Below, piece by piece: positions 4,869 through 30,500 of a stretch of DNA of 64,000 nt; position 1 is the first letter of the stretch, and each line of letters begins with the position of its first letter. The position numbers and the translations under genes were made by a program. The notes beneath the pieces are model-generated. The model saw only the letters and a list, made by a program, of their open reading frames with translations, was not told where the DNA came from and ran no database searches. The DNA comes from Phoronis australis (taxonomy: Eukaryota; Animalia; Phoronida). Location: NCBI GenBank assembly GCA_002633005.1, contig NMRA01000132.1:740585-804584 (forward strand), in the 5' to 3' direction.

Positions 4869-5037
4869 CAAGAGCTGTAATTCACAAGACCCACACTTAT
4901 GATTAAGATACGACGTTACTGGGAAACGCCCGTGTTATTAGAACCCGTATGTAAACGTTGAGTTGTCTCTTATTTATTTCAAAGACGTTGTGTTTCATGC
5001 ATTGTACTGACTGGTGCTGAAGGCCATAGCTGCAAAA

Positions 5038-5101
5038 ATGTTGATGAAGTGCTTCTTATTCAGTTTCGTGTTGGTAGCTTGTGTTTGCTTTGCGGAGTGT
5101 G
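5038..5101 (+). CDS. Signal-peptide exon of the microexon gene
   Basis: AAAAATG start context. Basic n-region (K), hydrophobic core FLFSFVLVACVCF, small residues A-x-C at -3/-1. Ends G|GTAAGG in phase 1, which matches the phase of the microexons. Confidence 0.85.
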
Positions 5102-8100
5102 GTAAGGGGTTATTTTCTATTTCTGCCTTTAAGGTACAAGGGCCTACCACATGTTAGAGTTGGCTTACGTGGTAAATGGATTGTTTTCGTTGCATCTCGT
5201 AAAGGTGGGGGAAGGGCAACCACAGTATATGTCCGCGTAAGCCCTATGCTGCTTTGTTGTAGTTACTTTGCGAAATGAATTGTTATCGAGTATGTTGCTA
5301 TGTTCTGACGTTTGTTCGTTTGCCGTTTATATATTCGTTAGTACCCAAGCTACCCACCACGTGTATTGTCTGATGGACATAAAATTAACATAACAGGCAT
5401 CTCATTAATGTATCAAAAAGCCTGTAGTTTTTGTGGAAATCGGCCTCAAAATTGGGCTGTATGGGCCAATTTTCAATTTTTCACTTGTGGTTCTCTGAGG
5501 GATTCCTTTGAGGGACTCTGAAATTTAATAGGCCTATATGTAAAAGAGGCAGCGCGATTAAAAGGAATCGTCGGGGACTTTCACGATGTAATTCTTTCTT
5601 GGTGGTTTTTCCACTTAATTTAATTCGTTTATAAGTTATACACCCAACACAATGCTTATTTATTGAATTAAATTTGAAAAATATATTCAAAGTTACTGAT
5701 AACAATACACCTAGAAACGGACCTTTTGCAGTCAAGAGCGTTCTTTGGTAGCAAATCTGGCGTCGACTCAAATCAGCACGTCCGAAATACGCCCATGTTA
5801 TGAGACCGATCCAATATAAACCAACCAGCCAAATTAGAACTTCTACGTACTTGAATTAATATTCTGCCACCACTCCAACAATAAAACCCAAAATTTTAAT
5901 TCCCCACCCAACATAATGTCATCAAGATCACACATCCGATTTGCCATCCCCAGTCTTATTTTGATAGTTTTAAAAAACTACAACTACAGATGTTAAAGCA
6001 AAATATTGAATGACAATTACTCAAAGTACGTAATGGTAGTAGCGCTAGTTCTACAGCGAGTTCAAAGTTGAATTCATTGTAACGATTTTCAACCGATATA
6101 TTGAGTTGTTAATTATTTGCGACGACTTCAAATTCATTGTAATGTGTTCTCAACTCTTGATTGGGATCTGGAAAGCATTATAATAACGTTATAATTGAAT
6201 TCGAAAAAAATTTCAATTCTGTACTTTCTTGATATGGTGACATTTGTCTTTCAGCAACAATTGCCTCACGATTCAGTAACGGTGAGTAGCTTGCACATGT
6301 TGGCATCTCGTAGACAAAAATGATTGCTTTGATACAGCGTTGATCCCTATCTAACACCTTCATGGGTTTTAACTAAGATTCGCCTGAAGTGCGCCTCCCG
6401 TTTTGTTCGTTTTTACCGCATATTTGATCTATCGGCATTCGAAGAAATATATAGAAATTGTCAGTGTTCGCTAGTGGTTCTAGTAGAGGCAGTTGGTAGT
6501 TGAAGCAGAATATTTCATTAAAATATTTCACTTTTTTCTGACAATAGTAGCTATAGTATGAAACTTAGTAGGAGCTGCTGAGCCAATAACTCAAATTTGA
6601 GGTCCTATGAACATCTGACCCATAATAGTCGGTACAGTTACTTCAAATTTGCTAAATTGATCCGCGAACTCGTTGCAATGAGATGTGAATTCCTTACTTT
6701 GATTTGTCAATTCATAACATTCAATTTAACATTAGCATTGTAAACTGATTATTACGATTTAAAACTCTTTATGAGCTGTTCTCATTTTAGTGAGTTTGAA
6801 ATTGTTATAAAGTTATAACTTGAGTGAACGGCAGCGTTGGCTTTTGTATTATAGTAGTATATGCTTTGTTTGCTTCGAAGTATAAAAATTATGAATTTAG
6901 TTATTTCCCATAAGATGGCATTTAAATTTCTGTTTCAGCAACGTTTGCCAAACGCCTGAGTAACGGTAAGTCTTTTGTTAGGTTTATCGTAAGTTGGCAG
7001 ATGATAGATTAAGCTTTATTGAGCTCTGACAACGCTTATAAGTTTTGATAATTAATATCCCCTTTCGGATTGACAACCGCTCTCGTGAATGCGACGTCGT
7101 CTTCCTAATAAATATCTGTTTGCATAATTTTATTAAAATCCGTTCAAGAACTCGGAAGATACATCAGTAGATAACCGTGAGAAAATTCGCTCATGCCGTC
7201 CCATCCATGAAAGGAACATATCTGTAAAAATTTCATGAACATACATGAAGGGGTTTTAGAAATACACTGGAAGGCGGTGGACGCCGGACACCGGAAGGAA
7301 GGACGGACGGGAATTGACGGACAGACAGACGGACGGACGGGCGGACGGACGGACGGACGGACGGACGGACAGAGATAACGGCATAATGCGGCCACAAATT
7401 AACATATGGGCTTATAACAATGAGTTGTGAACTCTTTATACTGACTTAGAAGTCATTGGAATCAGTTCATATCAGATCTCGCAGCACTGTTGGGCAGATT
7501 CACATCCGTATTCAAAACTATAATGCTGCATTTGATGTTAAAAACCTGACGATCGCCGCATTTGATGTGAAATGTATATTGTTAATTCAGTCCTTTCATC
7601 ATGGTCCCATTTGGATTTCAGTAACAATTGCCAAAATATTCTCTAACGGTAAGTTTGTCATCAGATAGCCAAACATCGTTGCCTTGTTACAACGATGACC
7701 TCTGTCAAACGCCTCCATTCTTGTTTATTAATACCCGCCCTTGGTGTACCTGCCGTTTTCGTCGCGTTTACCGCATGCCCTATCTATGGCCCACCAACGC
7801 GGTTTCCAAGAAAAAAATTAAAAAGTGTTCGTGGTTGCTGGTGGCTCTAGCGAAAGTAATTGACAATTGAAGCAAAATATTTCATAAGGAATATTTCACT
7901 TTACTCTAATAACACTACGGAAACTTTAGTAGGATCAGCTGTGCCATGAACTCAAATTTAAAGTCATCTTAATAACTTCTGACACATAACGACAAGTTGC
8001 ATAGTCGGTATATTTGCTTCCATCTGACACTACTGCGAACTAGTTGTAATGAGTTGAATATTCATAACATGGAGTTGTCAATTCATTATATGAAGCTTAA

Positions 8101-11100
8101 GACGTGAAATGTGAGCGGATTATTATGACACAGAAACTCGATATAACAAGTTCTCATTATCGTGAGTTGGAAGTCATTATAAATAATTCTAATTTTAAGT
8201 TAAGGGCAGAGCTCACGTCACTACCTTCCTTAATATAGCGTTGATGGTCTGTCTTATTGGAAGTAAGAACTTCCCAATTCATTATTTTTCCATAACTTTT
8301 ATGTTTCAGCAACGATTGCTAAACGACTGAGTAACGGTAAGTCTTTTGCTTGGCTTATGACAGATTGCCAGCTGACAGGTTTGATACGAAGTTGACCTCT
8401 GGCAACGCTTATTCGTTCTAATTTATTTCTCCTTTCGCGTCAATGACTGCTCTCGTTTCTTTCTACTGCAGTAATTAAAACAGAATATACAATAACTATG
8501 ACTCCGACAATTGCGAGAAGATTCACAAACGGTAACTTGTTTGCAAAGTTTGGCATGTGATAGCCAAAACTTGTTGCCTTGTTTCAGCGTTGACCTTTGT
8601 CCAACGCCTCCATGTTTGTTGATTTTTATCTTATCGAAATACCTCCCCTTTAGTGTGTATGGCGTTTTCGTCGTTTTTATCGCATCTTCCACCCCTGGTT
8701 AAACAATGTGATTTCCAAGGAATAACTTAAAAGTGAAAATGTTTGCTGGTGGTCCTAGAGGAGAAATTGGTAGCACAATATTTCGTCACTTAACAACATC
8801 TAACAAATAATAACGAGTTGCGCATTCTGCTTCAATACAGTGAGATGCAAACTCGCTGTAATGAGTTGTGAATTCATAAAATTTAGTTGTCAATTAATTA
8901 AACTGAATTTAACACTTAAAATGTAAACGGATTATTATGGCTTGAAACTCGATATCAGAAGTAAGAACTCTTCAATTCATTCTTTTTCAATAAGACCGCA
9001 ATTAAATCTATATCTTAACAACTTTTGCTAAACGACTGAGTAACGATAAGCCTTTTGCATGACTTGGCAGCTGATACGTTTGATACAATGTTGACCTCTG
9101 GCAACGCTAGTTCGTTTTAATAATTAATATCTGCTTTCGGATTAACGACAACTTTCTTTTGTTTTTACCACAGTAAGTAAAGCAAAATATTCAATAACAA
9201 TAAGTCCGACTAAGGGTTCATTAGTTGCAAAATTTACTGCACGTTGAAGTTTGAAGTTTTTGGAACGATTTAAAACTGATAAATTGAGCTTCAAAGCATA
9301 ACCATGAGTTGAAAAATGTTTACGAAGACTTCATATTCATTGTACTGACTTCTCAACTCTTATACTAAGTTGGAAGCCTTTATAATAACTTAAAAACTGG
9401 TATCATATTTGGAGCACATCCACTTCCGTACTGGGACTACAATGCTGCAATTGATGAGAAGTGAAATTTTTCAATTCAGTTCTTTCCTGATACGGTTGCA
9501 TTTGTGTTTCAGCAACTATTGCCAGAAGATTCACCAACGGTAAGTTGTTTGCACAATTTGTGGCATGTGATAGCCAAAAAGTGTTGCCTTGTTTCAGCGT
9601 TGACCTTTGTGCAACGCCTCCATGTTTGTTGATTAATGCCGCCCTTTAGTGTGTATGGCGTTTTTGTTGTTTTTATAGCATCGTCCACCCCTGCTTAAAC
9701 AATGTGATTTTCAAGGAATAACTTAAAAGTGACAATGTTTGCTGGCGGTCCTAAGGGAGGAATTGGTAGCACAATATTTCGTCACTTAACAGCATCTGAC
9801 AATAAATAACGAGTTGTGTTCTCGGCTTCTAAACAGTGAGAATCGAACTCGTTGTAATGAGTTGTGAATTCATAACATTTAGTTGTCAATTCATTACACT
9901 GAATTTAACACGTGAAATGTGAACCGATTATTATGACTTGAAACTCGATATGAGGAGTTCTAATTGTGCTGAGATGGTAATACTTGTAGACAATTACAAT
10001 TTTGAGTTAATGGCAGAGTTGACGCCATTACACGTCCTCATTATAGCATTGATACTCCGTTTTCTTCGAAGTAAAAACTTCTCAATTCATTCCTTTCCAA
10101 TAAGATGGTATCTAAATTTTTGTTTCATCAACTTTTGCGAAACGATTGAGTAATGGTAAGTCTTTTGCTTGGCTTATAATAAGTTAGCAGCTGATAGAAC
10201 ATAAATAGCTTTGCTGCGATGTTGACTTCTGTCAATGCTAATAATTAATATCTCCTTTCATGTTAACGACCGCTGTAGTTTGCTTTTACGGCTCTAATTA
10301 AAGCAGAATATTCAATAACAATAACTCCCACGAAGGAATCGTAGTATTGAAAACTTTATTGAAAGTTCAGATTTGAAGGTTTCGGAATGATTTAAAACGC
10401 ATTGATTGAGTTTGAAAGCCTCATAATGAGTTGCCAATTATATTGGATGACTTTAAATCCACTGTACTAAGTTTTCAACTCTTTAAACTGAGTTGGAAGT
10501 AGTTATGTTAAGTTAGTATTTGAATTAACAGTTTTTTGGAGCACGAACACTTCAGTATTCGAACGATAATGCTTCATTTGATATGAAATAAAATTTGCCA
10601 ATTCAGTCATTTCCTGATATGGTTGCATTTGTGTTTCAGCAACAATTGCCAAAAGATTCACTAACGGTAAATTGTTTGGACACTTTGGCCTCCGATAGCC
10701 AAAAACTGTTGCGTTAATTGTTACAATGTTCACACCTGTCTAGCGCCTCCATGCTTGTCAATTATGACCCGCCTGTAGTGTGTCTCCCGTTTTCGTCGTT
10801 TTCTACCACATGCTCTATCTATGGTCAACCAACGTGATTTCCAATGAATAACTGAAAAGTGCCAGTGGTGGTTCTAGAGGAAGTAATTGGTAGTTGAAGC
10901 AGAATATTTCATAAAAAATCTCACTTAACTCTAATAACAGTAGTTATAATACGGCAAATTTAGTAGGACTAGCTGTGCCAAAAACTCAATATTTGAAGCC
11001 ATTTTAACGACTTCTGACACATATTGAAGAGTTGTCGGCATATTTGTTTCAAACTGGTACTACAGCGAGCAGCGAACACGATGTAATAAGTTGTGAATTC

Positions 11101-14100
11101 AAAACATTGGAGTTTTAATTAATTGCTTTGAATTTAACACGTGAAATGTGAACGGATTATTATGACCTGGAACTCGATATAAGAAGTAAGAACTCCTCAA
11201 TTCATTCTTTTTCAATAAGACCGCATTTAAATCTATATCTTAGCAACTTTTGCTAAACGACTGAGTAACGATAAGCCTTTTGCATGACTTGGCAGCTGAT
11301 ACGTTTCATACGATGTTGACCTCTGGCAACGCTAGTTCGTTTTGATAATTAATATCTCCTTTCGGATTAACGACAACTTTCTTTTGTTTTTACTACAGTA
11401 AGTAAAGCAAAATATTCAATAACAATAAGTCCGACTAAGGGTTCATTAGTTGCAAAATTTACTGCAAGTTGAAGTTTGAAGTTTTTGGAACGATTTAAAA
11501 CTGATAAATTGAGATTCAAAGCATAACCATGAGTTGAAAAATGTTTACGAAGACTTCAGATTCATTGTACTGACTTCTCAACTCTTATACTAAGTTGGGA
11601 GCCTTTATAATAACTTTAAAACTAGAATCATATTTGGAGCAGATTCACTTCCTTATTAAAATTACAATGCTGCATTTGATGTGAAGTGAAATTTTTCAAT
11701 TCACTTCTTTCCTGATATGGTTGCATTTGTGTTTCAGCAACTATTGCCAGAAGATTCACCAACGGTAAGTTGTTTGCACAATTTGGCATGTGATAGCCAA
11801 AAAGTGTTGCCTTGTTTCAGCGTTGACCTTTGTGCAATGCCTCCGTGTTTGTTGATTAAGGCCCCCCTTTAGTGTGTCTGGCGTTTTTGTTGTTTTTATC
11901 GCATCCTCCACCCCTGCTTAAACAATGTGATTTTCAAGGAATAACTTAAAAATGACAATGTTTGCTGGCGGTCCTAGAGGAGGAATTGGTAGCACAATAT
12001 TTCGTCACTCAAAGGCATCTGACAATAAATAACGAGTTGCGTTCTCGGCTTCTAAACAGTGAGATGCGAACTCGTTGTAATGAGTTGTGAATTCATAACA
12101 TTTAGTTGTCAATTCATTACACTGAATTTAACACGTGAAAAGTGAACCGATTATTATGACTTGAAAATCGATATGAGGAGTTCTAATTGTGCTGAGATGG
12201 TAATACTTGTAGAGAATTACAATTTTAAGTTAATGACAGAGTTGACGCCATTCCACGTCCTCATTATAGCATTGATTCTCCGTTTTCTTCGAAGTAAAAA
12301 CTTCTCAATTCATTCCTTTCCAATAAGATGGTAACTAAATTTTTGTTTCAGCAACTTTTGCGAAACGATTGAGTAATTGTAAGACTTTTGCTTGGCTTAT
12401 TATATGTTAGCAGCTGATAGAAAATAAATAGCTTTGATGCGATGTTGACTTCTGGCAATGCTAACAATTAATATCTCCTTTCGGGTTAACGATCGCTGTA
12501 GTTTGCTTTTACGGCTATAATTAAAGCAGAATATTCAATAACAATAACTCCGACGAAGGAATCGTAGTATTGAAAACTTTATTGAAAGTTCAGATTTGAA
12601 GGTTTCGGAACGATTTAAAACGCATTGATTGAGTTTGAAAGCGTCATAATGAGTTGCCAATTATATTGGATGACTTTAAATCCACTGTACTAAGTTTTCA
12701 ACTCTTAAAACTGAGTTGGAAGTAATTATGTTAAGTTAGTAATTGAATTAACAATTTCTTGGAGCACGCGCACTTCAGTATTCGAACGACAATGCTTCAT
12801 TTGATGTGAAATAAAATTTGCCAATTCAGTCATTTCATGATATGGTTGCATTTGTGTTTCAGCAACAATTGCCAAAATATTCACTAACGGTAAGTTGTTT
12901 GGACACTTTGGCCTCCGATAGCCAAAAACGGTTGCGTTAATTGTTATAATGTTCACCCCTGTCTAGCGAGTCCACGTTTGTTAATTAAGACCCGCCTGTA
13001 GTGTGTCTCCCGTTTTCGTCGTTTTTACCACATGCTCTATCTATGGTCAACCAACGTGATTTCCAATGAAAAACTGAAAAGTGCCAGTGGTGGTTCTAGA
13101 GGAAGTAGTTGGTAGTTGAAGCAGAATATTTTATAAAAATATCGCACTTTACTGTAATAACAGTAGTTATAGTACGGCAAATATGGCAGGACTAGCTGTG
13201 CCAAAAACACAAATTTTGAAGTCATTTTAACGACTTCTGGCACACAATGAAGAGTTGTCGGCATATTTGTTTCAAACTGGCACTACAGCGAGCTGCAAAC
13301 ACGATGTAATGAATTGCGAATTCAAAACATTGGAGTTTTAATTAATTGCTTTGAGTATAACACGTGAAATGTCAACGGATTGTTATGACCTGGAACTCGA
13401 TATCAGAAGTAAGAACTCCTCAATTCATGCTTTTTCAATAATATCGCAATTAAACTTATATTTCAGCAACGTTTGCTAAACGACTGAGTAACAGTAAGCC
13501 TTTTGCATGACTTGACAGCTGATAAGTTTGATACGATGTTGACCTCTGGCAACGCTTATTCCTTTTAAGAATTAATATCTCCTTTCGGATTATGGACCAC
13601 TTTCTGTTTTTTTTTACTGCAGTAATTAAAGCAAAATATTTAATAACAATAAGTCCGACTAGGGAATCAATGAATTCAAAAAATTACTGCACGTTGAATT
13701 TTGAAGTTTTTGGAACGATTTGAAACTTATTCATTGAGCTTCAAAGCATAATCATGAGTTGCCAAATGTTTACAAAGACTTCATATTCATTGTACTGACT
13801 TCTCAACTCTTACACTAAGTTGGAAGCCTTTATAATAACTTTAAAACTAGAATCATATTTGGAGCCCATGCACTTCCGTATTGGAACTACAATGCAGCAT
13901 TTGATGTGAAGTGAATTTTTTCAATTCAGTTCTTTCCTGATATGGCTGCATTTGTGTTTCAGCAACTATTGCCAGAAGATTCACCAACGGTAAGTTCTTT
14001 GCACAATTTGGCATGTGATAGCCAGATAGTGTTGCCGGATTTCAGCGTTGACCTTTATGCAACGCCTCCGTGTATGTTGAGTAATGCCGCCCTTTATTGT

Positions 14101-17100
14101 GTCTGGCGTTTTTGTTGTTTTTATCGCATCCTCCACCCCTGCTTAAACAATGTGATTTTCAAGGAATAACATAAAAGTGACAATGTTTGCTGGCGGTCCT
14201 AGAGGAGGAATTGGTAGCACAATATTTCGTCGCTTAGTCACTTACGGCATCTGACAATAAATAACGAGTTGCGTTCTCGGCTTCTAAACAGTGAGAATCG
14301 AACTCGTTGTAATGAGTTGTGAATTCATTACATTTAGTTGTCAATCCATTACACTGAATTTAACACGTGAAATGTGAACCGATTATTATGACTTGAAAAT
14401 CGATACGAGGAGATCTAATTGTGCTGAGATGGTAATACTTGCAGAGAATTACAATTTTGAGTTAATGGCAGAGTTGACGCCTTTACACGTCCTCATCATA
14501 GCATTGATTCTCCGTTTTCTTCGAAGTAAAAACTTCTCAATTCATTCCTTTCCAATAAGATGGTATCTAAATTTTTGTTTCAGCAACTTTTGCGAAACGA
14601 TTGAGTAATGGTAAGTCTTTTGCTTGGCTTATAATAAGTTAGCAGCTGATAGAAAATAAATAGCTTTGCTGCGATGTTGACTTCTGGCAATGTTAACAAT
14701 TAATATCTCCTTTCGGGTTAACGACCGCTGTAGTTTGCTTTTACGGCTATAATTAAAGCAGAATATTCAATAACAATAACTCCGACGAAGGAATCGTAGT
14801 ATTGAAAACTTTATTGAAAGTTCAGATTTGAAGGTTTCGGAACGATTTAAAACGCATTGATTGAGTTTGAAAGCGTCATAATGAGTTGCCAATTATATTG
14901 GATGACTTTAAATCCACTGTACTAAGTTTTCAACTCTTAAAACTGAGTTGGAAGTAATTATGTTAAGTTAGTAATTGAATTAACAATTTCTTGGAGCACG
15001 CGCACTTCAGTATTCGAACGACAATGCTTCATTTGATGTGAAATAAAATTTGCCAATTCAGTCATTTCATGATATGGTTGCATTTGTGTTTCAGCAACAA
15101 TTGCCAAAATATTCACTAACGGTAAGTTGTTTGGACACTTTGGCCTCCGATAGCCAAAAACTGTTGCGTTAATTGTTACAATGTTCACCCCTGTCTAGCG
15201 CGTCCACGTTTGTTAATTAAGACCCGCCTGTAGTGTGTCTCCCGTTTTCGTCGTTTTTACCACATGCTCTATCTATGGTCAACCAACGTGATTTCCAATG
15301 AAAAACTGAAAAGTGCCAGTGGTGGTTCTAGAGGAAGTAGTTGGTAGTTGAAGCAGAGTATTTCATAAAAATATCGCACTTTACTCTAATAACAGTAGTT
15401 ATAGTACGGCAAATATGGTAGGACTAGCTGTGCCAAAAACTCAAATTTTGAAGTCATTTTAACGACTTCTGACACACAATGAAGAGTTGTCGGCATATTT
15501 GTTTCAAACTGGCACTACAGCGAGCTGCAAACACGATGTAATGAATTGCGAATTCAAAACATTGGAGTTTTAATTAATTGCTTTGAGTATAACACGTGAA
15601 ATGTCAACGGATTGTTATGACCTGGAACTCGATATCAGAAGTAAGAACTCCTCAATTCATTCTTTTTCAATAATATCGCAATTAAACTTATATTTCAGCA
15701 ACGTTTGCTAAACGACTGAGTAACAGTAAGCCTTTTGCATGACTTGGCAGCTGATAAGTTTGATACGATGTTGACCTCTGGCAACGCTTATTCCTTTTAA
15801 GAATTAATATCTCCTTTCGGATTATGGACCACTTTCTGTTTTTTTTACTGCAGTAATTAAAGCAAAATATTTAATAACAATAAGTCCGACTAGGGAATCA
15901 ATGAATTCAAAAAATTACTGCACGTTGAATTTTGAAGTTTTTGGAACGATTTCAAACTTATTCATTGAGTTTCAAAGCATAATCATGAGTTGCCAATTGT
16001 TTACAAAGACTTCATGTTCATTGTCCTGACTTCTCAACTATTACACTAAGTTGGAAGCCTTTATAATAACTTTAAAACTAGAATCATATTTGGAACCCAT
16101 GCACTTCCGTATTGGAACTACAATGCTGCATTTGATGGGAAGTGAATTTTTTCAATTCAGTTCTTTCCTGATATGGCTGTATTTGTGTTTCAGCAACTAT
16201 TGCCAGAAGATTCACCAACGGTAAGTTCTTTGCACAATTTGGCATGTGATAGCCAGATAGTGTTGCCTTGTTTCAGCGTTGACCTTTATGCAACGCCTCC
16301 GTGTATGTTGAGTAATGCCGCCCTTTAGTGTGTCTGGCGTTTTTGTTGTTTTGATCGCATCCTCCACCCCTGCTTAAACAATGTGATTTTCAAGGAATAA
16401 CATAAAAGTGACAATGTTTGCTGGCGGTCCTAGAGGAGGAATTGGTAGCACAATATTTCGTCGCTTAGTCACTTAACGGCATCTGACAATAAATAACGAG
16501 TTGCGTTCTCGGCTTCTAAACAGTGAGAATCGAACTCGTTGTAATGAGTTGTGAATTCATTACATTTAGTTGTCAATCCATTACACTGAATTTAACAAGT
16601 GAAATGTGAACCGATTATTATGACTTGAAAATCGATACGAGGAGTTCTAATTGTGCTGAGATGGTAATACTTGTAGAGAATAACAATTTTGAGTTAATGG
16701 CAGAGTTGACGCCATTAAACGTCCTCATTATAGCAATGATTCTCCGTTTTCTTCGAAGTAAAAACTTCTCAATTCATTCCTTTCCAATAAGATGGTATCT
16801 AAATTTTTGTTTCAGCAACTTTTGCGAAACGACTGGGTAATGGTAAGTCTTTTGCATGGCTTATAATAAGTTAGCAGCTGATCGAAAATAAATAGCTTTG
16901 CTGCGATGTTGACTTCTGGCAATGTTAACAATTAATATCTCCTTTCGGGTTAACCACCGCTGTAGGTTGCTTTTACTGCTATAATTAAAGCAGAATATTC
17001 AATAACAATAACTCCGACGAAGAAATCGTAGAATTGAAAAGTTTACTGAAAGTTCAGATTTGAAGGTTTCGGTACGATTTATAACGCATAGATTGAGTTT

Positions 17101-20100
17101 CAAAGCGTCCTAATGAGTTGTCAATTATATTCTATGAATTTAAATCCACTGTATTAAGTTTTCAACTCTTTACACTGAATTGGAAGTAATCATGTTAAGT
17201 TTATAATTGAAATCGCAGTATATTTGGAGCACGTTTACTTCCGCATTGGAACTATCGTTCTGCATTTGATATGAAATAAAATTTGCCAATTCAGTCTTTT
17301 CCTGATATGATTGCATTTGTATTTCAGGAACAATTGCCAAAAGATTCAGTAACGGTAATTTGTTTGGACACTTTGGCATCCAATAACCAAAAACTGTCGT
17401 GTCGTTACAATGTTTACCTCTAGCGAATGGCTCCATGCTTGTTAATTAAGACCCGCCTGTAGTATGTCTCCCGTTTTCGTCGTTTTTACCACATGCTCCA
17501 TCTATGGTCAACCAACGTGACTTCCAATGAATAACTAAAAAGGGCCAGTGGTTGTTCTAGCGGAAGTATTTGGTGTTTGAAGCAGAATATTTTATAAAAA
17601 ATATCTCACTTACTTTAATAACAGTAGTTATAGTACGGAAACTTTAGTAGGACCAGCTGTGCCAAAAACTCAAACTTTGAAGTCATTTCAACGATTTCTG
17701 ACACATAATGAAGAGTTGCATAGTCGTTGTATTTGTTTCAAACTGGCACTACAGCGAGCTGCGAACTCGATGTAATGAGTTGGGAATTCAAAACATTGGA
17801 GTTTTCAATTAATTGTTTTGAATTTAACACGTGAAATGTGAACGGTTTATTATGACTTGTAACTCGATACTAGGAGTTCTAATTATACTGAGATGGGAAT
17901 CCTTGTAGAGAATTATGAATTTGAGTTAACCGCAGAGTTGAGGCCACTACGCGTCCTCATTATAGCGTTGATTCTCCATTTTCTTCGAAATAAGAACTTT
18001 TCAACTCATTCCTTTCCCATAAGATCGTAAATAAATTTCTGTTTCAGCAACGTTGGCCAAACGACTAAGTAACGGTAAGTCTTTTGCTTTGTTTGCAATA
18101 AGTTAGCAGCTGATAGAATGTAGATAGCTGTGATACGATGTTGACTTCTGGCAATGCTAATAATTAATATCTCCTTTCGGGTTAACGACCACTCTCGTTT
18201 GGTTTTACGGCAGCAATTTAAAGCAGAATATTCAATAACAATTTCTGCGACGAAGAAATCGTAGAATGGAAAACTTTACAGCAACTTCAAGTTTAAAGTT
18301 TTTGGAACGATCTGAAACTTATAGATTGAATTTCGAAGCAGTATAATGACTTTAAAATTATATGCAATGACTTCAAACCCATTGTACGAAGTTCTCAACA
18401 CTTTACACTGAGCTGGAAATAATTATGTTCAGTTAATAATTGAATTCCCAGTTTATTTGGAGCACGCGCACTTCAGTATTCGAACGATAATATTTCATTT
18501 GATGTGAAAAAAATCTGCCAATTCATTCTTTTCCTGATATGGTTGCATTTGTGTTTCAGCAACAATTGCCAAAAGATTCAGTAACGGTAAGTTGCTTGGA
18601 CTGTTTGTCCTCCGATAGCCAAAAATTGTTGCGTTAATTGTTACAATGTTCACCTCTTTCTAGCGCCTCCATGCTTGTTCATTAAACCCGCCTGTAGTGT
18701 GTCTCCCGTTTTCGTCGTTTTTACCACATGCTCTATATATAGTAAACCAACGTAATTTCCAATGAATAACTAAAACTGCCAGTGGTGGTTCTAGAGGAAG
18801 TAATTGGTAGTTGAAGCAGAATATTTCATAAAAATATCTCACTTTACTCTAATAACAGGAACTTTAGTAGGACCAGCTGTGCCAAGTACTCAAACTTTGA
18901 AGTCATTTCAACGATTTCTGACACACAGTGAAGAGTTGCAGTCGGTGTATTTGTTTCAAACTGGCACTATAATGAGCCGCAAACGTGATGTAATGAGTTG
19001 TGAATTCAAAACATTGGAGTCTTTAATTCATTAAAATGAATTTAACATGTGAAATGTGAACGGACTTGAAACTCGATATCAGGAGTTCTCACTATCGTCA
19101 ATTGGAAGTCACCATAAATTATTCTAATTTTGAGTTAAGGGCAGAGTTGACACCACTGCCTTCCTTAGTTGATGGTCTGTTTTCTTCGAAGTAAGAACTT
19201 CTCAATTCATTCGTTTTCCATAAGATCGCACTTTTGAAATTTATGTTTCAGCAACGTTTGCTAAACGACTGAGCAACGGTAAGCCTTTTGCTTGACTTAT
19301 GTTAGATTGGCAGCCAATAGGTTTGATACGATGCTGACCTGTGGCAACGCTCATTCGATTTGATAATTGATATCTACTTTCTGTTTAATTACCGCTTTCG
19401 TTTGTTTTTACTGCAGCAATTAAAGCAGATTATTCAGTAAGTAACTCTACTGCAAGTTCAAACTTGAAGTTTTCTGAATAATTTGAAACTTATATATTGA
19501 GCTTCAAAGCAATGTAATGAGTTGCCAATTGTTAACGAAGAGTTCATACCCATTGTACTGTGTTCTCAACTCTTTATGCTAAGTTGGAAGACCTTATAAA
19601 AAGTTTAAAGTTGAATTCGCGGCATATTTGAAGCTTGCACACTTCCGTATTCGAACCATAACAGTGCATTTGATGTAAAATAAAGTTTGTCAAGTCTTTC
19701 CTGATATGGTTGCTTTTATGTTTCAGCAACAATTGCCAAAAGATTCATTAACGGTAAGTTGTGTGCACACTTTCGCATCTGATAGCCAAAATCTTTGCCT
19801 TGCTGGAACGTTGAGCTCTATCTAACACCTCCATGTTTGTTCATTGATTCCTACCTCACGCGTGTCTGGGATTTTCATCGTTTTTAGCGCATGCTCTATG
19901 GTCAACCAGCGTGATTTCCAAGGTCATAACTAAAACTTTTCACTTTCCTCTGGTGATTCTTGTGGAAATATGTAGTTGAAGCAGAATATTTCGTCATTTA
20001 ACAGCTACTGATAGATAATAACAAGCCGCATAATCGGTATATTTTTTTCAAAATCGCTACAGTGAGCTGCAAACTCGTTGTAATCAGCTTTGAATTCATC

Positions 20101-23100
20101 ACATTGAGTTGTCAATTAATTACATTGAATTGAACACGAGATTACTGTAAACGAATTGTTATGACGTGAAAACTCGATCTGAGGAAGCGTGTTTTAAATC
20201 ATGTGCAGATTTGTAATTTTGAGTTAACGGCAAAGTTGACGCCACTACGCATCCGTAATATGGCGTTGATGCTTTGTTTTCTTCAAAGTAAAAACTTCTC
20301 AATTCATTCCATTTCCATAAGTTCGCAATTAAATTTGATTAACGGTAAGTCTTTTGCTTGGCTTATGACAGATTGGCAGCTGATAGGTTTGATACGATGT
20401 TGACCTCTGGCAACGCTTATTCGTTTTGATAATTGATATCTTCTTTCGGGTTAATGACCCCTCTAGACTGTCTTTGCCGCGGTAATTAAAGGAGAATATT
20501 CAAAAACACTAATTACAACTGTGGAATCGTAGAATTGCAAACTCTACTCCTAGTTCAAATTTGAATTTTTTTTGGAACAAATTGATGCTCGAAAATTGAG
20601 TTTCAAAGTATTATAATGAGTTGCCAATTGTTAACAAAGACTTCATATTCATTGTTCTAAGGTCTCACTCTCAGCTCTTTATACCGAGTTGGAAATCACT
20701 GTAATAAGATGAAAATTAAATTCGCAGCACATTTGAATCACTTGCACTTCCGTATACGAACCACAATCCAGTTCTTTCCTGATATGGTTGCATTTGTGTT
20801 TCAGGAACAATTGCCAAAAGATTCACTAACGGTAAGTTATTTGCACAATTTGGCACCTGATAGCCAAAAATGGTTGCCTCTTACAGCGTTGACCTCTGTC
20901 TAACGCCTCCATGTTTGTTAATCCACATCCGGCTGTAGCGTGTCTGCCGTTTCTGTTGTTTTTTTACAGCATGCTCTACCTGTGGCCAACCAAAGTGATT
21001 GCAAAAAAAATAATCAAAAAGTTCAGTGTTCGAATGTGGTTCTAGCCGAAGTAGTTGAACCAGAATAGTTAAGAACTTTATATTTCAGCACCAATTGCCA
21101 AAAGATTCACTAAGGGTAATTTTCTAACACACTGTGAAATCTGATAGCCAAAAATTGTTGTTTTTTCAAGACGTTAAACTCTGTATAACGCCTTCAAGCT
21201 TGTAGGAGTGTTAAGACCACGCTTTCATTCTGTGACACTTTATTGAATCTAAGTCGCTTGTGCCCTGACATACAGAAAGCAATTACAACTCTTTCTGCAA
21301 CATATGTCAATGGTCATCCTGTCGCTTGCACTCAAGCAATGATTCTTCGAATGGGCAATGTGTCAAAGTCGTGGACCAAGTAGGTCAACCGACTTGGTCG
21401 GGTGACTAATTGGTCTACGACATCAACATACAGAAATGAACAGTACATCACATGGATACTCAGGCTGGATGGGCCATAGAAGTTACTCAACAGAAAACAA
21501 AGCAAGTTGACATATCTGAAATCTTTTGTTGTGCTAACGTAAAAGTAAATCCAAAATGAACAGTTATTCAATATAAAGAGACAACTTAGTCAACTAAGAG
21601 ATAACAAGACCAATTTGAAAACCATGTCATTCCTGGCATCAACACAGGGTCCGAGTGATTTTTTGAGCGATGACAGGCAGACCAATAGACCAAAACAAAC
21701 CCAAACAAATGGACAATTATGACGCAATTACAAGATATTGTAGTACTGCACAATTTTGATGAAAATGCAGAAGAATCTGGCCTATATAGATGACTTTGTG
21801 TCCGAATAACCGAGGAACTTATTTTTACGCTTGAATAATCTGATTAATTTGTTCACGTTTCATATAGAGTGGAGTATTCTTTTTCTTCAACAACAAGATT
21901 TTTAAATGTCGCCTGTAAATTATTATTTTTTTGCTCTCATTCATAAGGTGATGAAGTGTTTAGTGTTGGAATTTTGACATTTCCTTTGAAATTCTATTTA
22001 GTCCGTTCAGTTAATGTTATTAGTGAAATGAACATTTTCCCATAGCCAAATTGTTTTCATTGATAGAAAGCTCTTTAGAAACTTCAGAGTTCAGCTTTTT
22101 TCAGAGTAATGTTGCTTTGCAGATTTTACGTGTGTTCTCTGCAACAATCTAAAATAAAAGAGTAGGAAACAACCACATGACCACCTGGGATTGCCACTTT
22201 TAAGGCCAGGGGATACCTTGATTTGCTGTTATAAGAATCAAACAAAAGTACGATTTTATAGTTGATCAAGACTTAGTGAGAGAGGATATAATTCTTTGGG
22301 AGTTTGCCACCATTTCTTGTCATTATAGCGTGGACCTCATTTTGCGTTACTGATCCTCTTCTCTGTGTGATAAAATCTCCTTGAGAAAGAATTAAGTTTC
22401 ACGTACCGGTAGGCAAAGTGTTGTTTACAGCTATATTTGCTTTTTGTTGTCTTCAATCCATTAACCACAGAAAATAAATCAAATACATTGGGTGATTTAG
22501 AACAGACACTAACAAAACACAAATGAATTACCAAGTAGTGATTGCACACTCAGTTGTTAAGTAAACTTAATTGAAGAGCATTTATTTATAGGTACCTTGG
22601 GTACATGCTTAGCTACTTTCTCTTCTCTTAATGGCGGAGCTTTAATGTGTTGGAGGGGTATTTTGGTGCTGTCTTGGGACTTAAGTTCCCTTATCTAGTT
22701 CTCTTGATTTTATCTCTGCTGTCACATGGGGTTCTAAGAACTGAAGCAATACACAATTACGGCCATATAAATGACTCAACTGTGTATCTGACTGTAAATG
22801 TTGTTGACCAAGCATATGTGGAACGTTTGACTGAACATGTATAGCCAAAACATAGTCTGAGATCGAACACAATGATGATGGTTTCAACAAAACGCCCTTA
22901 ATTGTCAAATGGATTAAGAGGTTGCACTCTGCCATGACAAAAGAATAGTTTAATAAAATTGTGACATCAGCGTATTTCTAAACCGCAAGGTCACCTTGGT
23001 TAGCTTCAGTCTCCTTTTGGGATGCATATAAAGTGAACAGTAAGCTTGTCCAGAGTGTTTCTTTTAATATTTGTACGAAAATGGAGAATAAGTTCACTTT

Positions 23101-26100
23101 GGTTAAATTCAATGTAGTGACCAGTTTTAGTTTACACATTCAAATGAAAAACTACAAATAATGAATAAACGAGATTGCTTATTTAGGTTAATAATGTCTA
23201 AGGTTCTCTTGACAACAGTTGCCAACTTTATTAAAGTCTGCCATTATCTTGTGTCTTGTTCTACTCACAGGTGTTCATTTAAATGGATGACACCAGTGAC
23301 GTCTGCATAACCAAATTACACAAGTACATATAATTGCGCAACTGAAATAGTTCTCAATACATGATATAGCTGTAGAGTTATTATATCCACTATTACGAAA
23401 ATATCATGACGTTCTCGAAAGTGCATGAATGAAACTGAAAGCTTGTATTAAATCACCAAAGTCTGTAAAGAAAATCACAACAAGTTTTGTATTCATATAC
23501 CACCTTCACATCAACGTATTATTTTGTAAAATAATAAATATTGGATGTAGAAAAAATCGGTGTCATCTCATACACTGTTTTTTGTGTTGTTTTTGTATAG
23601 TTTAACGAAAAGTCTTCAATTATTTTATGAAAATTCATTTATAGCGTGCACAGAATACTAGGCTGGGTGTTAAGTTCCAATGGTTACTATTACTAATAGT
23701 AGTGATAATGAGGGTGTCGGTAAGTTGACACTTTCTAAGTTATAAACATATTAGCTGTCCGAGATCTGTACTGCTGAAGTTAGAGACCAAGCGAGTTTTC
23801 TCATGACTAAAAAGCGTCCGCGTATGCAAGTGGTTCTAATCGATATAACACGAAGTTGAAGCAGAATATTTCATCAAAGTAACTCACTTTACTCTAGTAG
23901 TTATAGCACGGAAATACAGTGGGACCAGCCTTGCCAGGAACGCAAATTTGAAGTCATTACAAAAACTTCCGACGCATTGTAATTCCTGTGAACTAATTCC
24001 AGTGAGTTACAAACTAATTGTAATGAGACGTCAATTCAGTACATGGAATTTGAAACTCACAATGCATTGTGAACTGTTTATAATGACTTGAAATTCATTC
24101 AGTGTATTTAGTAGTAAATCATTACAAGTGCGATTTGATTTGCAGTTTAAGTGAACGTCAGAGTTGGCTCCGCTACGTTCCCGTATTTGAGCCCTGGTGC
24201 TCTGTTTGCTTCGAAGTATAATGGTTCTCAATTAGGTCCTTTTGCTAAAAGATCTCAATTAAATTTCTGTTTCAGCAACCTTTGCTAAACGACTGAGTAA
24301 CGGTAAGTCTTTTTGTTTGGCAGCTGACAGAAAAAAAAAAACTAGTTTTAAAACGACGTTGGTATCTTCCAGAGCTTATATCTTTTGATAATTAATATTC
24401 CACTTCTGATTAACGAGCCCTTTGTTTATTTGTACCGCATTAATTAAAGCAGAATATTCATTCAGCAATAATTCAAGAGTACGATCAAAGTAGCACCAAG
24501 TCTGCTGCGGGTCGATTTTCAACTCGTCGAGTTTCAAAGCATTATAGTGAGTTTCCAATTATTTACAATGTATGTAAATTCAATCTAATGAGTTGTCAAT
24601 TCTTTATACTGATTTAGAAGTCATTATAATAATTTTATATTTGAGCTCGCACCAAAGTTGGAGCAGGTAAATCTCGTATTAGATCTATAAAATGCGCTTG
24701 ATGTGATTGCTTTCCTGATATGGTCGCATTTGTGTTTCAGCAACAATTGCGAAAAGATTCCCTAACCGTAAGTTGTTTGCACGTCTGATAGCCAAAATGG
24801 TTTGCTTTGCTACAACGTTGACCTCTGTCTAACCCCCGTTGTTTGTTTATAATACCCGTCTTTAGTGTGTCTGCCGTTTTCGTCGTTTTTACCACAAGCT
24901 CTATCTATGGTCAACCAACACGGTTTCCAAGGAGTAATTAATCGTTACATTGAGTTTAAAAATTCACAATGCATGCTGAAACTCATTATGTTGAGTTAGA
25001 AGTTGTTATGAAGAGTTCCAATTTGAGTGAACGGCAGAGTTAGCTCCGCTACGCCTCCGTATTAGAACACTTATGCTCTATTTGCTTCGAAGCATAACAA
25101 TTATCAACTGAGTTCTTTCTCATAAGAACGCTTTTAAATTTCTGTTTCAGCAACGATTTCCCTACGACTGGCTAACGGTAGGTCTTGGTTTATGGTTAAT
25201 TGGCGGCTGATGGAAAAAGGTAGCTGTGATACGATATTGTCCAACAGCAACGCTGATACGTTTTGATAATTCATTATAATGAGTCGTCAAATTTTTATAC
25301 TGAGTTAGAAGTCATTATAGGTATTTAATATTTAAACTCGCAGCAATGTTAGAGCACGTAACTTCCATGATAGAACCTTAATACTGCATTTGATCTGAAA
25401 TGAAATTAGTCAATTCTTTACTTTCCTGATGTGGTCACACTTGTGTTCCAGCAACAATTGCCAAACGATTCAGTAATGGTAAGTTTTTACACACTTTGGC
25501 ATCTGATAACCAAAAACATGGCAGTATATTGAGTTGGAAATCATCACAAAGAGTTCCAATCTGAGTGAACGGCAGATTTGGCTCCGCTGCGTTTCCATAT
25601 TTGAGCTCTGATGCTCTGTTTGCTTCGAAGTATAATGGTTCTCAAGTAGGTCCTTTGCTATAAGATCTCAATTAAATTTCTGTTTCAGCAACCTTTACTA
25701 AACGACTGAGTAATGGTAAGTGTTTTTGCTTGGCTTACGATAAATTGGCAGATGACAGAAAAAAGCTATCTTTGATATGACGTTGACCTCTTCCAAAGCT
25801 TTTGATATTAATATTCAAACTCAGATTAACGAGCCCTTTTGTTTGTTTGTAATGTGTTTCACGTGTAATGTGCTTCACGTGTAATGTGCTTCACGTGTAA
25901 TGTGCTTCACGTGTAATGCGCTTCACGTGTAATGTGCTTCACGTTACCGCATCTTTTATCTATCAGCAACCAATGTGGTTTCCACTGAATTATTAAAAAA
26001 TGGTCAGTTTTGGTAGTGGTTCTGGCCGAAGGATTTCGTAGTTGAAGCTTTCAGTAAATAATTAATCAAAATAACTCACTTTACTGTAACAAGAGTAGTT

Positions 26101-27559
26101 ATAGTGCGGAAACTTTAGTAGGACCCGCTGTGCTATGAACTCAAATTTGAAATCATGTTAACAATTTCTGACACATTATAACGAGTTGCATAGTCGGTCT
26201 AATTTTTTCAAACTCCCTACAATGATCTGCGAACTCGTAATAAGTTTTCAATTGACATCATTGAGCAGATTAATATGACTTGAAACTTATTACGATGTGT
26301 TGTCATATTGTACTTAGTTGGAATGTATTATAAAGACTACCAGAGCAGAGCTGGTAGCACTACATTTTAATCCTTTCCCTTGAGATCGCATTTAAATTTC
26401 TGTTTCAGCAACAGTTACCAAACGGTAAATCTTTTGCTTGGTTATGATAAGTTGGCAGCTGATAGAAAAAAGAGATCTTTGATACTGTTGTCCTCTGGCA
26501 AGCGCTTACAGTATAAGTTTTGATAATGAATATCCACTTTCCGGTTAACGACCGCTCTCGTTTGTTTTACAATAATTTTAAGTAGAATATTCAATTACAA
26601 GAAATCAAAATACGGAATCCTAGTAGCACCAACCCCACTGCGAATCCAAATTTGAAATAATTTTAACGATTTCCAACTCATAGATTGAGTTTCAAAGCAT
26701 TATAATGCGTTTCCAATTATCTATAATGACTTGAAACTCCTGAAGTCATTATATTAACGAGTTCGCAGTAGAGTTGGAGCATGTTACATATTTGAAATGT
26801 AGAGCGCTAATGGTGTGTTTGCAGTAAATTAAAGTTCTCAATTCATTTATTTCCTCATGTAATCGGAACCAGTTTTACTTTTTCAGCGACTGTTGCCTTG
26901 ACGACTGAGTAACGGTAAGTCTTTTACATGCTTCACATTGGAAGTTAATTGACACGAAGTGTTGATCCGCATCTAAAGCATCCAAGTCGTGGTAAAGTTG
27001 CATTTTGCTTTGTTTAGCTTTCTAATTTCAAAGTCGGTGTCGAACAATGGTGTACCAGGTTTAACCGTTCCTCAGTTTTCTTCGCCTTTTCACTAATTTT
27101 TGGCAACCTTCCTAATATTCCACCTCTACCAAGAACAATTTTCGTACCTCCTACAATTTTCATTTTCGCTCATCGTCTGAAATATTACCCAGGAGTACGT
27201 GCCACCCATTGCCCCCAAAGGCACCTCTCGATGCTTTGCTACAGCAGGCAAAACCTTTCAAAAATATCATCCTTAGGCACATTTTTAACAAGCCGACCAG
27301 TCTTCAACAGCGGCGGGTAATTTTTCTCAGGTTAAATTTTTTTTGCACGTAAAAGTTAGACCCCACGGGGTCAAAATTAAATGATATACGGGGTTGAATA
27401 CGTTCAACTTAGATTAAAAATCACTTGTGGTGTTTAGTAAATAAATATCTATCTGTTTCAGATCTACCATACAGAACACACAAGCAGAAGCCCGACGATA
27501 TGGCATTTACAAATACAAGTAGTTCAGAAAAAGAAGGAATTAAAGCATTTCAGTTGTAA
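5038..27559 (+). CDS. Novel secreted repeat polyprotein encoded by a 27-nt microexon array (candidate glycopeptide/prohormone precursor), ~300 aa
   Basis: Exon 1 is 5038-5101 (MLMKCFLFSFVLVACVCFAEC, phase-1 donor GTAAGG). Intact 27-nt exons start at 6255, 6939, 7622, 8310, 9513, 10640, 11738, 12352, 12863, 13467, 13963, 14584, 15095, 15699, 16194, 16816, 17328, 18048, 18560, 19252, 19727, 20805, 21089, 24276, 24741, 25151, 25452 and 25689. Translation: ATIASRFSN ATFAKRLSN VTIAKIFSN ATIAKRLSN ATIARRFTN ATIAKRFTN ATIARRFTN ATFAKRLSN STIAKIFTN ATFAKRLSN TTIARRFTN ATFAKRLSN ATIAKIFTN ATFAKRLSN TTIARRFTN ATFAKRLGN GTIAKRFSN ATLAKRLSN ATIAKRFSN ATFAKRLSN ATIAKRFIN GTIAKRFTN APIAKRFTK ATFAKRLSN ATIAKRFPN PTISLRLAN ATIAKRFSN ATFTKRLSN. 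Putative last exon from 27462; the 3' end is uncertain. Confidence 0.85.
7095..7420. repeat. Insertion containing a (GGAC)n microsatellite within an intron of the array
   Basis: GGAC/GACA run at ~7300-7370, embedded in sequence absent from the other monomers. Boundaries approximate. Confidence 0.65.
21201..23820 (-). mobile_element. ~2.6 kb foreign insertion interrupting the array; decayed coding remnant with a BRCT-like segment
   Basis: Array homology stops near 21203 and resumes near 23830. The minus-strand frame at ~22440-22126 reads NLILSQGDF..TQNEVHAIMTRNGGK..SH*VLI..LKVAIPGGHVVVSYSFILDCC, with stops. Element class not identified. Confidence 0.5.
25849..25944. repeat. 16-bp minisatellite GTAATGTGCTTCACGT x6
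   Basis: Six directly visible tandem copies. Confidence 0.95.
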
Positions 27560-30500
27560 CAACTTGGTTTTGGGATATAAATAAGAACATATTGTCGATT
27601 ACTTGTTTTTATACACGTACTGACGGATGTTTGATCGGACCGCCGATCGGACCGCCGATCGAACCTCTCGGTCACGCCGACCTTGGAAGAACAACGAGCT
27701 GATTTCGAAAACGCAGCACTTGGAGTTTTTTGTTTTTACATCGAGCTGGTCTTATTTTTTCTAATATACACCTCAACCTTAAAGTACAAATCCCGGGATT
27801 TTTGGTGCAACGTAATGTCTTACTAAGTCCTAATTAGGATATACTTTTATAATTAATAGCAACTTGAACTTCAGCGACACCCGACGACCTTGTCTAGTAA
27901 CGTCTGAGTCACTTGTCTCGTGATCAGAGTCCCAGTTCTCCCAACTCAGCAAGAGAACATTTCAAGCAGTAATCACCAGTTTTATTTACCATGAGCCAAC
28001 ACTGGGTGATATATCCGATTTACGAACGAACTCGGGCGCTTTTAAAGTGAACAGTGCGATTTGTCTGACTAAAGAGATGGCAAAGAAGTTGACGGCAGTG
28101 AACTGGAGCAAGTGATGTTTAAAAGTACGCTTGTACAGTCGTGTGCAGAATGGCGGCTGGGCGACAAGTTGAGCATATACACTATCTCGATAAGAAGCTG
28201 ACCTCTTTGTGCCTCACCACGCCAATGTGCGGTACATGACGAGTATACGTCCTATTTGTCACATTGTAACACCGTTGGGAGGGGGGGGGGGGNGGGGGGG
28301 GGAGTATTCACACGACCAACATCGCATCATGAGTCGCGTAATAAATGCCGTTCGTTGTGAAGCTTTACACGTTTGTTCGACTTAAATCTAAACAGAAATA
28401 ACAGGACCTTTCATGCGTTTTTGCGGCACCCGCAATTTCCCATTCAACTATAAAACAACAACAACGACAACAAATGCTGTCGGGCATTTTTGGATGTTAC
28501 ATCTCCCGTTCGACAAAAAAACGCTGTCGGTACGTCTTTGTGTGCTGCAGAGAACATTTCACCCGGCTTAGACCCAGATGTCCCGCTTTTTATCCTGAAG
28601 TCCCGCTTTTCAATCCAGTTTTTTCGTTCTTGAATGTTAACCGTGACAACTATGCAACAATTGTTCAAAATAACACTTTTATTGTTATTTTACAGAGTAC
28701 GCTTTCTTTAGTCACATAGCAATCGTAAAAATGTGTCCGAATGTCACTTGTTTACGGTAAGTTACCCTACATGTATCAGGAACACTAACTTTTACTTGCT
28801 GAAGAAAAAATATTTCTAAACGTTTATGGAAAATCCTACACTGCAACCATTGTGATCAGCTATCCACAGTGCATTTCAAAGCTACGTGATAGATGTTTGC
28901 TCATTTTTGTCTATCAGAAAACCTTTATCTGCAAATTTCGGATAGATGCTTGGAGTAGTTTATCGCATTTTTCGTAAATGTCAGTGTATTCTAAGTTTTT
29001 ACTGAATAATGTAATTGTATCAAACGGTAACAAAGGTCAAATTAATTGTAATATATAAAGATGTTTAATTTTGGATGAATTCCAGTCTCCACAGGAAGTG
29101 TATGGGATACATTTTCTAAATTTATAAAACCTTTGTCTTTAAAGTGGAGAAATCTTTTGAATTACTGAAATTATTTTCCTAGCAGCTTAACTAGTTATTT
29201 ATATAACCTCTCTGGTTCATTACATTACTATTTCACACTGTTATTTTTCGCATTTTGGTAACAGTCAGGTATGCTCTTGAATTAAATCATTTATCTTTTG
29301 CTTCTGGTATCATCATCAAGAACTGACAAAGGGCTTTCTTATGACGTGGCTTGTACGCAATTCGGTAGAAAAACGGCGGGGTTGCGGAAAGTTTTAATGA
29401 GAGTAAACTGCATAGCGAATACACACACCGAAACAAACGAATGCCAACAACTCTCACGCATGCGCGGCGCAACCTCAGCGGCCGCGAGATCGGAGTTGGC
29501 ATTCCAGGGCTAGAGTTCTATATTGAATGTGATTCTCTGCCACAGAAGTCAAACTGTTCACCAGGTATTTTTATGGTTTGTTCGTAAAGATATTGAATTT
29601 CTGTTGCTTTCAAAACATTTTCCTTTATAATTTCAAATTTAAAAAAGCGATCTGTCAACTGCTCGTCACTTCGTTCATTTTTCTCCCACTCGACAAAGCA
29701 CGTCTCCTTAATTTTTTATTTGGTATGGCAAGTCATAAACGTAGCACTTTCCTTTATATGGAAAATGTGTCTTTTGACCTTTCATGTAGCAAAACAATGG
29801 AGATTTCAAACAGCAGCCAGTCCGACTTCTTTGAATGCATGCGCGCATATATATTAGTGGCAGGGATTTTGAAAACTGTATTGGGATTAAAAAAGTTTTT
29901 ATTTCGTATATGTCTCACAAAAAGTGAATTGGGCGTTCTTTTTTCTAAAAAGTCGTGCAGTATTCGAAGTGAATAACTCTTACGTTATTAGCATCCCCAA
30001 GAAATAGATTCTCCGCGATCTGTTTGCAATGTGTTTTTACGAGTTTTCGCGGTCCATGAATCTTTAACGAAACTCTCACTGTAGACTCAAGAATGGTTAG
30101 AAATCAATGAATGCCTGTCGCCTTGGGAAGTCTCTACACGTTTAGCGGCCCGAGGTTTCTTGTGCGCACGCTTAAGATTTGAGCAGCACTACTACCTTGC
30201 TTACTGACACTCCGCAGCCTTGATCCTACACATATTGAAAATGACGGCGCCCCTACACAAACTTTCTAAATCGAGTTCGCATCACCTGAGGTCAGTGTTC
30301 CTGTAGGCGTAGAAAGATCAGCGTACGATTACGCTATTGGTGCCCCCAAAATGCTGTAAGCGTGAGGCACCAAAAAGCGCGTTGTCTGTAGCATAGGCTA
30401 ATTCCGCTATATTGTTAACCCGCCACTGTAGTATTTATACAGCTTTTACAACAAAGTTATCTGTGGGTGACATTCTTGAGGGTTTATGGCAGGCCTAAGC

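Follow-up and report, generated by a model that had tools for sequence, protein, structure and literature searches.

A tandem array of 27-nucleotide microexons in Phoronis australis encodes a candidate multi-copy precursor of N-glycosylated heptapeptides

Several described systems bear on the gene considered here. The multi-copy proneuropeptides of lophotrochozoans, as in the Platynereis set, combine a signal peptide with tandem short peptides between Lys-Arg (KR) or Arg-Arg (RR) pairs and contain no other domain (PMC3890597). SmPoMuc of Schistosoma mansoni is a glycosylated protein with a 22-residue signal peptide and a variable number of 9-residue repeats, each specified by a 27-bp exon in tandem units of ~1 kb (PMC2576457). 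Honeybee apidaecin haplotypes vary in the number and sequence of their exons, and splice variation has been proposed to tune the peptide mix (PMC1847501). N-linked neuropeptide glycoforms exist as rarities, accounting for 1 of 24 glycosylated lobster peptides (bioRxiv 10.1101/2025.06.26.661634). Beside these we place a plus-strand gene from the phoronid Phoronis australis, which lies in a window of 64,000 nucleotides (nt), the whole stretch analyzed, at positions 740,585 to 804,584 of contig NMRA01000132.1. Its core is an array of 28 intact 27-nt exons, and we propose, at slightly better than an even chance, that it encodes a multi-copy precursor cut at KR/RR to give non-amidated, probably N-glycosylated heptapeptides.

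The anatomy of the gene matches the usual prohormone criteria, namely a signal peptide, basic sites, repetitive conserved peptides and no other domain (PMC3890597): a signal-peptide-like leader and basic sites flanking repeated peptides are present and other domains are absent, whereas searches that reach near-identical repeats only gave no homology to a known family. These likenesses to the Platynereis precursors are offset by the lack of a sequence match, the use of one microexon per repeat, the N-glycosylation sequon (N-x-T) in nearly every peptide and the absence of amidation (PMC3890597). With SmPoMuc the gene shares a signal peptide (here predicted), the 27-bp exon coding a 9-residue repeat and the ~1-kb genomic units; however, SmPoMuc is acidic (isoelectric point, pI, 4.3–5), with predicted O-glycosylated S/T/P repeats, 15 exons, a C-terminal part (exons 3–15) and membership of a multigene family, and dibasic processing is not described in the available part of its account (PMC2576457). 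The phoronid protein is instead basic, bears N-sequons and ends in a tail of 8–12 residues; SmPoMuc is an architectural analogue and not a homologue. The predicted phoronid product resembles apidaecin as a secreted multi-peptide precursor derived from duplicated exons, but an apidaecin exon holds one complete 28-residue unit, whereas the 9-residue phoronid exon is centered on the cut site and its peptides straddle the junctions (PMC1847501); the phoronid repeats are also not proline-rich, unlike apidaecin. The schistosome MEGs likewise assemble their secreted proteins from numerous tiny in-frame exons and vary by exon skipping, but their exons measure 6–81 bp (mostly 15) and number 10–20 per gene, as against one 27-nt exon tandemly repeated, and the MEG post-signal motif is absent from the phoronid gene model (PMC10526429). 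Finally, the lobster Val1-SIFamide glycoform and the Drosophila sex-peptide pheromone are short secreted peptides that bear a glycan on Asn, as the phoronid products would be, but are rare single cases, whereas the predicted phoronid precursor has a sequon in nearly every copy (bioRxiv 10.1101/2025.06.26.661634).

A position-weight scan of both strands for 27-nt units recovers 32 of them between positions 6255 and 25715, every one on the plus strand (scores 18.5–74.4; top minus-strand score −9.2). The AG..GT ends are kept in 28 and lost in the remaining four (8505, 9019, 10129 and 11244; Table 1), although other alleles may have an intact unit at 10129, unless the reads showing G at its acceptor derive from paralogous copies. 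The basic pair of the intact units is KR in 19, RR in four, KI in three and SR and LR in one each, which reproduces exactly the 23 dibasic exons counted in a preliminary description of this DNA. The residue before the pair is A in 26, S in one, T in one and never G, bearing out the earlier expectation of products without an amide. All intact units are phase-1 exons; hence each junction falls inside the codon of heptapeptide residue 4, and a mature peptide would indeed be shared between successive exons. When split at KR/RR, the gene model gives 24 pieces, including LSNATIA (four times), FTNATFA (three), FTNATIA (two) and LSNTTIA (two), and it contains 25 N-x-T sequons, created across nearly every exon junction. 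Among 200,000 shuffles of the consensus unit placed in tandem, 12.5% hold KR/RR and 3% hold both KR/RR and a sequon. Trees of the intron flanks resolve two old unit classes, Leu-type A and Phe-type B, which mostly alternate; units are spaced at 0.5–0.7 kb, an AB pair spans ~1.1 kb, and pairs have been re-duplicated as ~2.2-kb blocks. Since the units are paralogues, the 23 dibasic pairs in 28 units do not represent 28 independent events, but 3–4 changes of dibasic state on the unit tree. One array intron also holds a ~2.5-kb insertion (21200–23750) without a long open reading frame, which behaves like a dispersed repeat, drawing reads on both strands with many differences from three of the runs described below (X2, X3 and X4).

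The repeats are under purifying selection. Parsimony over codons 2–9, on a tree derived solely from the intron flanks (5.25 substitutions per site in length), counts 21 synonymous and 27 nonsynonymous changes, a per-site ratio (dN/dS) of 0.40 (binomial p=0.002). Against the flank rate, the observed and expected nonsynonymous changes are 1/10.5 for T2, 4/12.8 for I/F3, 2/10.5 for A4, 5/13.4 for K5, 2/10.6 for R6, 1/12.0 for F/L7, 11/12.3 for S/T8 and 1/14.0 for N9; the residue-change counts are the same on 50 of 50 bootstrap trees, except at S/T8 (6–9). K5 underwent three change events, one of them to R. The residue at R6 changed twice as against ~10.6 expected, and its codon changed silently 2–4 times; none of the 28 units has exchanged this Arg for Lys, which suits the convertase rule for the P1 position, the numbers being tiny. 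The middle residue of the sequon changed six times as against two for N and T together (p=0.011), and it varies although its codon holds the donor −1 and acceptor +1 bases. Thus, the sequon formed by N9 and the next T2 across the junction is constrained at least as much as KR/RR. The preliminary description had read the array as a precursor of plain heptapeptides and passed over the sequon; splicing, expression, the signal-like first exon, the lack of another domain and the constraint on KR/RR all agree with a precursor, but with a sequon so constrained its products would more likely be glycopeptides, and an uncut glycoprotein becomes a serious rival.

The gene outgrows the array on both sides, running from about 5015 to 27600, so that the previously given 6255..25715 corresponds to the repeat span. 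Exon 1 codes for 21 mostly hydrophobic residues with a hydropathy peak of 3.2 over nine residues, and the signal-peptide call rests on this hydropathy together with in-frame splicing to the array. An element resembling a miniature inverted-repeat transposable element (4621–4868), with perfect 16-bp terminal inverted repeats, lies some 150 nt ahead of the point where the transcript begins; it is multi-copy, with reads bearing unrelated flanks in all four runs and a further arm match at 42772–42787. On the 3′ side, the 16-nt and 28-nt exons are damaged repeat units, and the 28-nt exon supplies the stop, as TAA (26910–26912) without the 16-nt exon and TGA (26906–26908) with it. Inclusion of the 16-nt exon gives the C-terminus ..KR-DCCLDD, an acidic hexapeptide with vicinal cysteines that is unlike the repeats and is a possible second product. 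A candidate last exon at 27876 was ruled out by its almost complete lack of read depth. Read in phase 1, 27462–27560 yields 32 residues with a repeat-like F-T-N-T-S sequon and no Pfam family, and may be a former coding tail of the ancestral gene, severed by the frameshift in the 28-nt exon. Counting every one of the 28 units, the model comes to 281 or 285 residues, comprising the signal, the repeats and the short tail. The 260 post-signal residues include 52 K/R and a single acidic residue, the computed pI being 12, the highest value that the program returns. Beyond the signal there is no further hydrophobic stretch (maximum 19-residue hydropathy 0.59). Pfam families number zero in the three gene pieces scanned, the model after residue 21 consisting of repeats, and Rfam matches zero in 4000–29000.

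The gene is spliced and expressed in a sample-specific manner. Reads from four public runs of one species label, known by code and without a tissue label, were placed on 17900–28285 and 4500–11150: X1 comprises contigs whose RNA origin is a guess and which share 0.07 of the words of 27400–28285, and X2, X3 and X4 are raw RNA runs of 12.75, 11.31 and 11.05 million reads. The joint from exon 1 to the array (5101 to 6255) has 49 reads in X2, 65 in X3 and none listed in X4; three multi-copy joints together have 849, 666 and 26 reads respectively, X4 being ~25-fold lower; and the main X1 contig is spliced, at a depth of 387. GT..AG stands at predicted exon ends in 10 of the 15 joints listed for 17900–28285 (28 further joints are unlisted), and GT..AG is found in 5 of the 15 listed for 4500–11150; the five other joints in the former region are expected of near-identical exons or allelic variants placed on the best-fitting copy. 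The first mate lies on the minus strand in nearly all junction reads, which under the usual stranded protocol indicates plus-strand RNA. Some exons appear to be optional: the 24276-type exon proceeds to 24741 in 78 and 74 reads and straight to 25151 in 7 and 4; exon 25151 proceeds to a Phe-type exon in 64 and 75 reads and straight to 25689 in 16 and 19; and exon 25689 joins 26887 either directly or through the 16-nt exon (Table 1). X1 contains unspliced contigs across the 25452 and 26409 exons (depth 34 and 17), both skipped by its main contig, which favors real exon skipping, although haplotype differences or contig simplification may be other sources of the pattern. The suggestion that skipping would alter the peptide mix is therefore plausible, but the effect would be slight, the exons being nearly alike. 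Joints that appear to go back 27 nt were set aside as evidence of exon repetition, being accounted for by near-identical neighboring exons, as was the joint 6281 to 8310 as evidence of skipping, the alleles of 6939 and 8310 being indistinguishable. Some repeat variants in the reads have no counterpart in the window, and at exon 25151 a set of three linked differences occurs in 88 of 124 X2 reads and in none from X1; short reads cannot count exons.

We advance the following mechanism for the proposed glycopeptide precursor. The mRNA would be translated into the signal-peptide-like leader and a run of 9-residue repeats, with the product being secreted; the N-x-T sites would be N-glycosylated in the endoplasmic reticulum (ER); and a prohormone convertase would then cut after Lys-Arg or Arg-Arg, followed by trimming. 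Each precursor would release about 20 heptapeptides, non-amidated and following the pattern [F/L]-[S/T]-N-x-T-[I/F]-A, the majority of them glycosylated at the central Asn, along with a few 13–16-mers where KR has been lost, and these might serve as signalling or gland-secreted (glyco)peptides. The ER normally adds a glycan to N-x-T sites of unfolded secreted chains, and the basic residues left by dibasic cleavage are trimmed by carboxypeptidase. The convertases PC1/3 and PC2 cleave C-terminal to dibasic pairs (PMC9070308). As the duplicated exon is centered on the cleavage site, any two joined exons restore a whole peptide and its sequon; consequently, the array can expand, contract or be skipped over with its frame intact. 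A bolder version, which we entertain only tentatively, holds that this is a dedicated factory for N-glycosylated heptapeptides: the 27-nt exon built on a convertase site would be the evolving module, the junctions would make peptide and sequon, and duplication, alleles and skipping would reassort peptide halves.

Several observations weigh against the glycopeptide precursor. The dibasic site has been destroyed 3–4 times independently, a KI unit is found in expressed mRNA, and acidic spacers and an amidation signal are both absent. The constraint on N and T equals that on K and R, for which an uncut glycan scaffold accounts equally well, and glycans lying three residues after and seven before each cut might hinder the convertase. 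The silent third bases of the K5 and A1 codons are invariant (0 changes), so that part of the conservation may reflect constraint at the level of splicing or RNA, and the counts derive from parsimony over paralogues, which gene conversion could distort. The profile search, which reaches near-identical repeats only, found no homologue to show conservation of the dibasic pair between species.

The best-surviving alternative, possible in our view but on the unlikely side, is that cutting does not occur, or is only partial, and the secreted product is a strongly basic N-glycoprotein of bottle-brush form, belonging to mucus, matrix or an egg or tube coat, or one acting in adhesion or microbe binding; here, K-R would be kept for its charge, and repeat number and glycan load would vary by allele or splice form, as in SmPoMuc. 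The 25 sequons in 260 residues, the status of N and T as the least-changed positions, the excess of basic over acidic residues noted above and the loss of KR from five of the 28 units all accord with it, as does the precedent of a like architecture (27-bp exon, 9-residue repeat and ~1-kb units) yielding a glycosylated polymorphic Schistosoma mucin (PMC2576457). However, charge alone would permit R to be replaced by K at position 6, which has occurred in none of the units; an anchoring or cross-linking domain is absent; the hydrophobic positions are constrained too, as in a recognized peptide; and 49–65 junction reads per 11–13 million, in runs without a tissue label, are modest for bulk secretion. 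An improbable alternative, corresponding to the preliminary description, keeps the cuts at KR/RR but has the peptides unglycosylated, with N and T being the residues through which an orphan family of neuropeptides or pheromones binds its receptor. The glycosylation normally undergone by N-x-T in an unstructured secreted chain tells against it, as does the drift of the middle residue while N and T hold, which is the signature of a sequon. It would draw on the same anatomy and KR selection as the glycopeptide precursor, and repetitive species-specific precursors are common in lophotrochozoans (PMC3890597). Stacking of the repeats as a beta-solenoid or amyloid-like fiber (9- or 18-residue period), or self-assembly of released peptides into a structural coat, is very improbable: the regular period, the alternating A/B units and the conserved Asn, Thr and aromatic/aliphatic positions would suit it, but the hydrophobic moment is low (beta 0.21–0.63 at 160–180 degrees, alpha 0.27 at 100 degrees), and stacked K-R and bulky glycans would work against an Asn ladder.

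The gene is real and expressed, and we regard it as a candidate orphan, a candidate prohormone belonging to no named family. A profile built from the in-frame genomic translations of 25 of the 28 intact units scored against none of 480 candidate proteins, and its two matches among 1.84 billion proteins (one from pigeon and one bacterial hypothetical protein) were rejected, the repeat being absent on reading. The profile gives 80 bits to its own gene model and is significant for one of nine diverged decoys; hence it reaches near-identical repeats only and would overlook distant relatives. The JGI metagenomes gave no match to a degenerate exon pattern, and six peptide motifs had none in the literature searched. 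The comparison with neuropeptide collections that had been suggested did not recover the KR-flanked motif in the supplements of PMC8557429 (1 file), PMC3890597 (11 of 16 files), PMC5996578 (6) and PMC9793003 (7); four NATIA/NATFA matches in neuropeptide supplements belong to unrelated proteins.

Elsewhere in the window, all on the plus strand, we observed: (i) a multi-exon gene of the SLC22/organic cation transporter type (33402–51400; MFS_1, Sugar_tr), an exon of which is 57–59% identical to two proteins of the snail Bulinus (best, Bulinus truncatus), with no other of the 21 matches above 45%, a weak pointer to a lophotrochozoan host; (ii) a retrotransposon remnant with integrase domains (30782–32482; Integrase_H2C2, rve), which we take to be Gypsy-like; (iii) a decayed reverse transcriptase of the long interspersed nuclear element type (1000–2900), with a weak RVT_1 match (E=8e-4); and (iv) coding-looking exons (58690–62075), four pieces of which returned no Pfam or NCBIfam family, and which presumably resemble YMR196W-like glycoside hydrolases of yeast. 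There is no CpG depletion (observed/expected 0.94–0.98).

Table 1. Exons and repeat units of the Phoronis australis gene (window coordinates).
Feature	Position	Strand	Basis
Exon 1: short 5′ untranslated region and 21-codon signal-peptide-like coding sequence; ATG 5038, donor after 5101, phase 1	5015..5101	+	Read ends 5015–5017
Array of 28 intact 27-nt phase-1 microexons, 9 residues each, consensus ATIAKRFSN	6255..25715	+	Scan; RNA-read joints with GT..AG at the predicted ends
Intact exons 1–14	Starts 6255, 6939, 7622, 8310, 9513, 10640, 11738, 12352, 12863, 13467, 13963, 14584, 15095, 15699	+	
Intact exons 15–28	Starts 16194, 16816, 17328, 18048, 18560, 19252, 19727, 20805, 21089, 24276, 24741, 25151, 25452, 25689	+	
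Pseudo-exon, acceptor lost	8505..8531	+	Scan; bypassed by joint 8336 to 9513
Pseudo-exon, acceptor and donor lost	9019..9045	+	Scan
Unit with acceptor AT, not AG, in the assembly	10129..10155	+	Intronic reads have G at 10128 (5/5, 8/8)
Pseudo-exon, donor lost	11244..11270	+	Scan
A-type unit remnant, exon mostly deleted	20330..20350	+	A-type flank match 20034–20671
Optional 16-nt exon, an A-type unit minus 11 nt	26409..26424	+	Carried by 7 X2 reads between 25715 and 26887; skipped in 8 (X2) and 15 (X3)
28-nt degenerate unit exon, stop in both frames	26887..26914	+	Joint 26914 to 27462 in 104 and 90 reads
Last exon, 3′ untranslated region in the isoforms seen	27462..27600	+	X1 contig 27461–27582, depth 387; molecule ends 27533, 27574

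Annotation easily overlooks genes of this kind, as the absence of a protein match in two large libraries illustrates. If the protein is both cut and glycosylated, it would represent a precursor design that we did not find in print, nearly all of whose products would be tiny N-glycopeptides; such molecules would escape standard peptidomics, and the array would lend itself to testing whether convertases are blocked by N-glycans that flank the cut closely. On the bolder view of a dedicated factory, the signal would be a glycan with roughly double the mass of the peptide that carries it, delivered in about 20 copies per precursor. Even if the protein remains uncut, the phoronid gene would stand as an independent origin of a SmPoMuc-style array of 27-nt exons.

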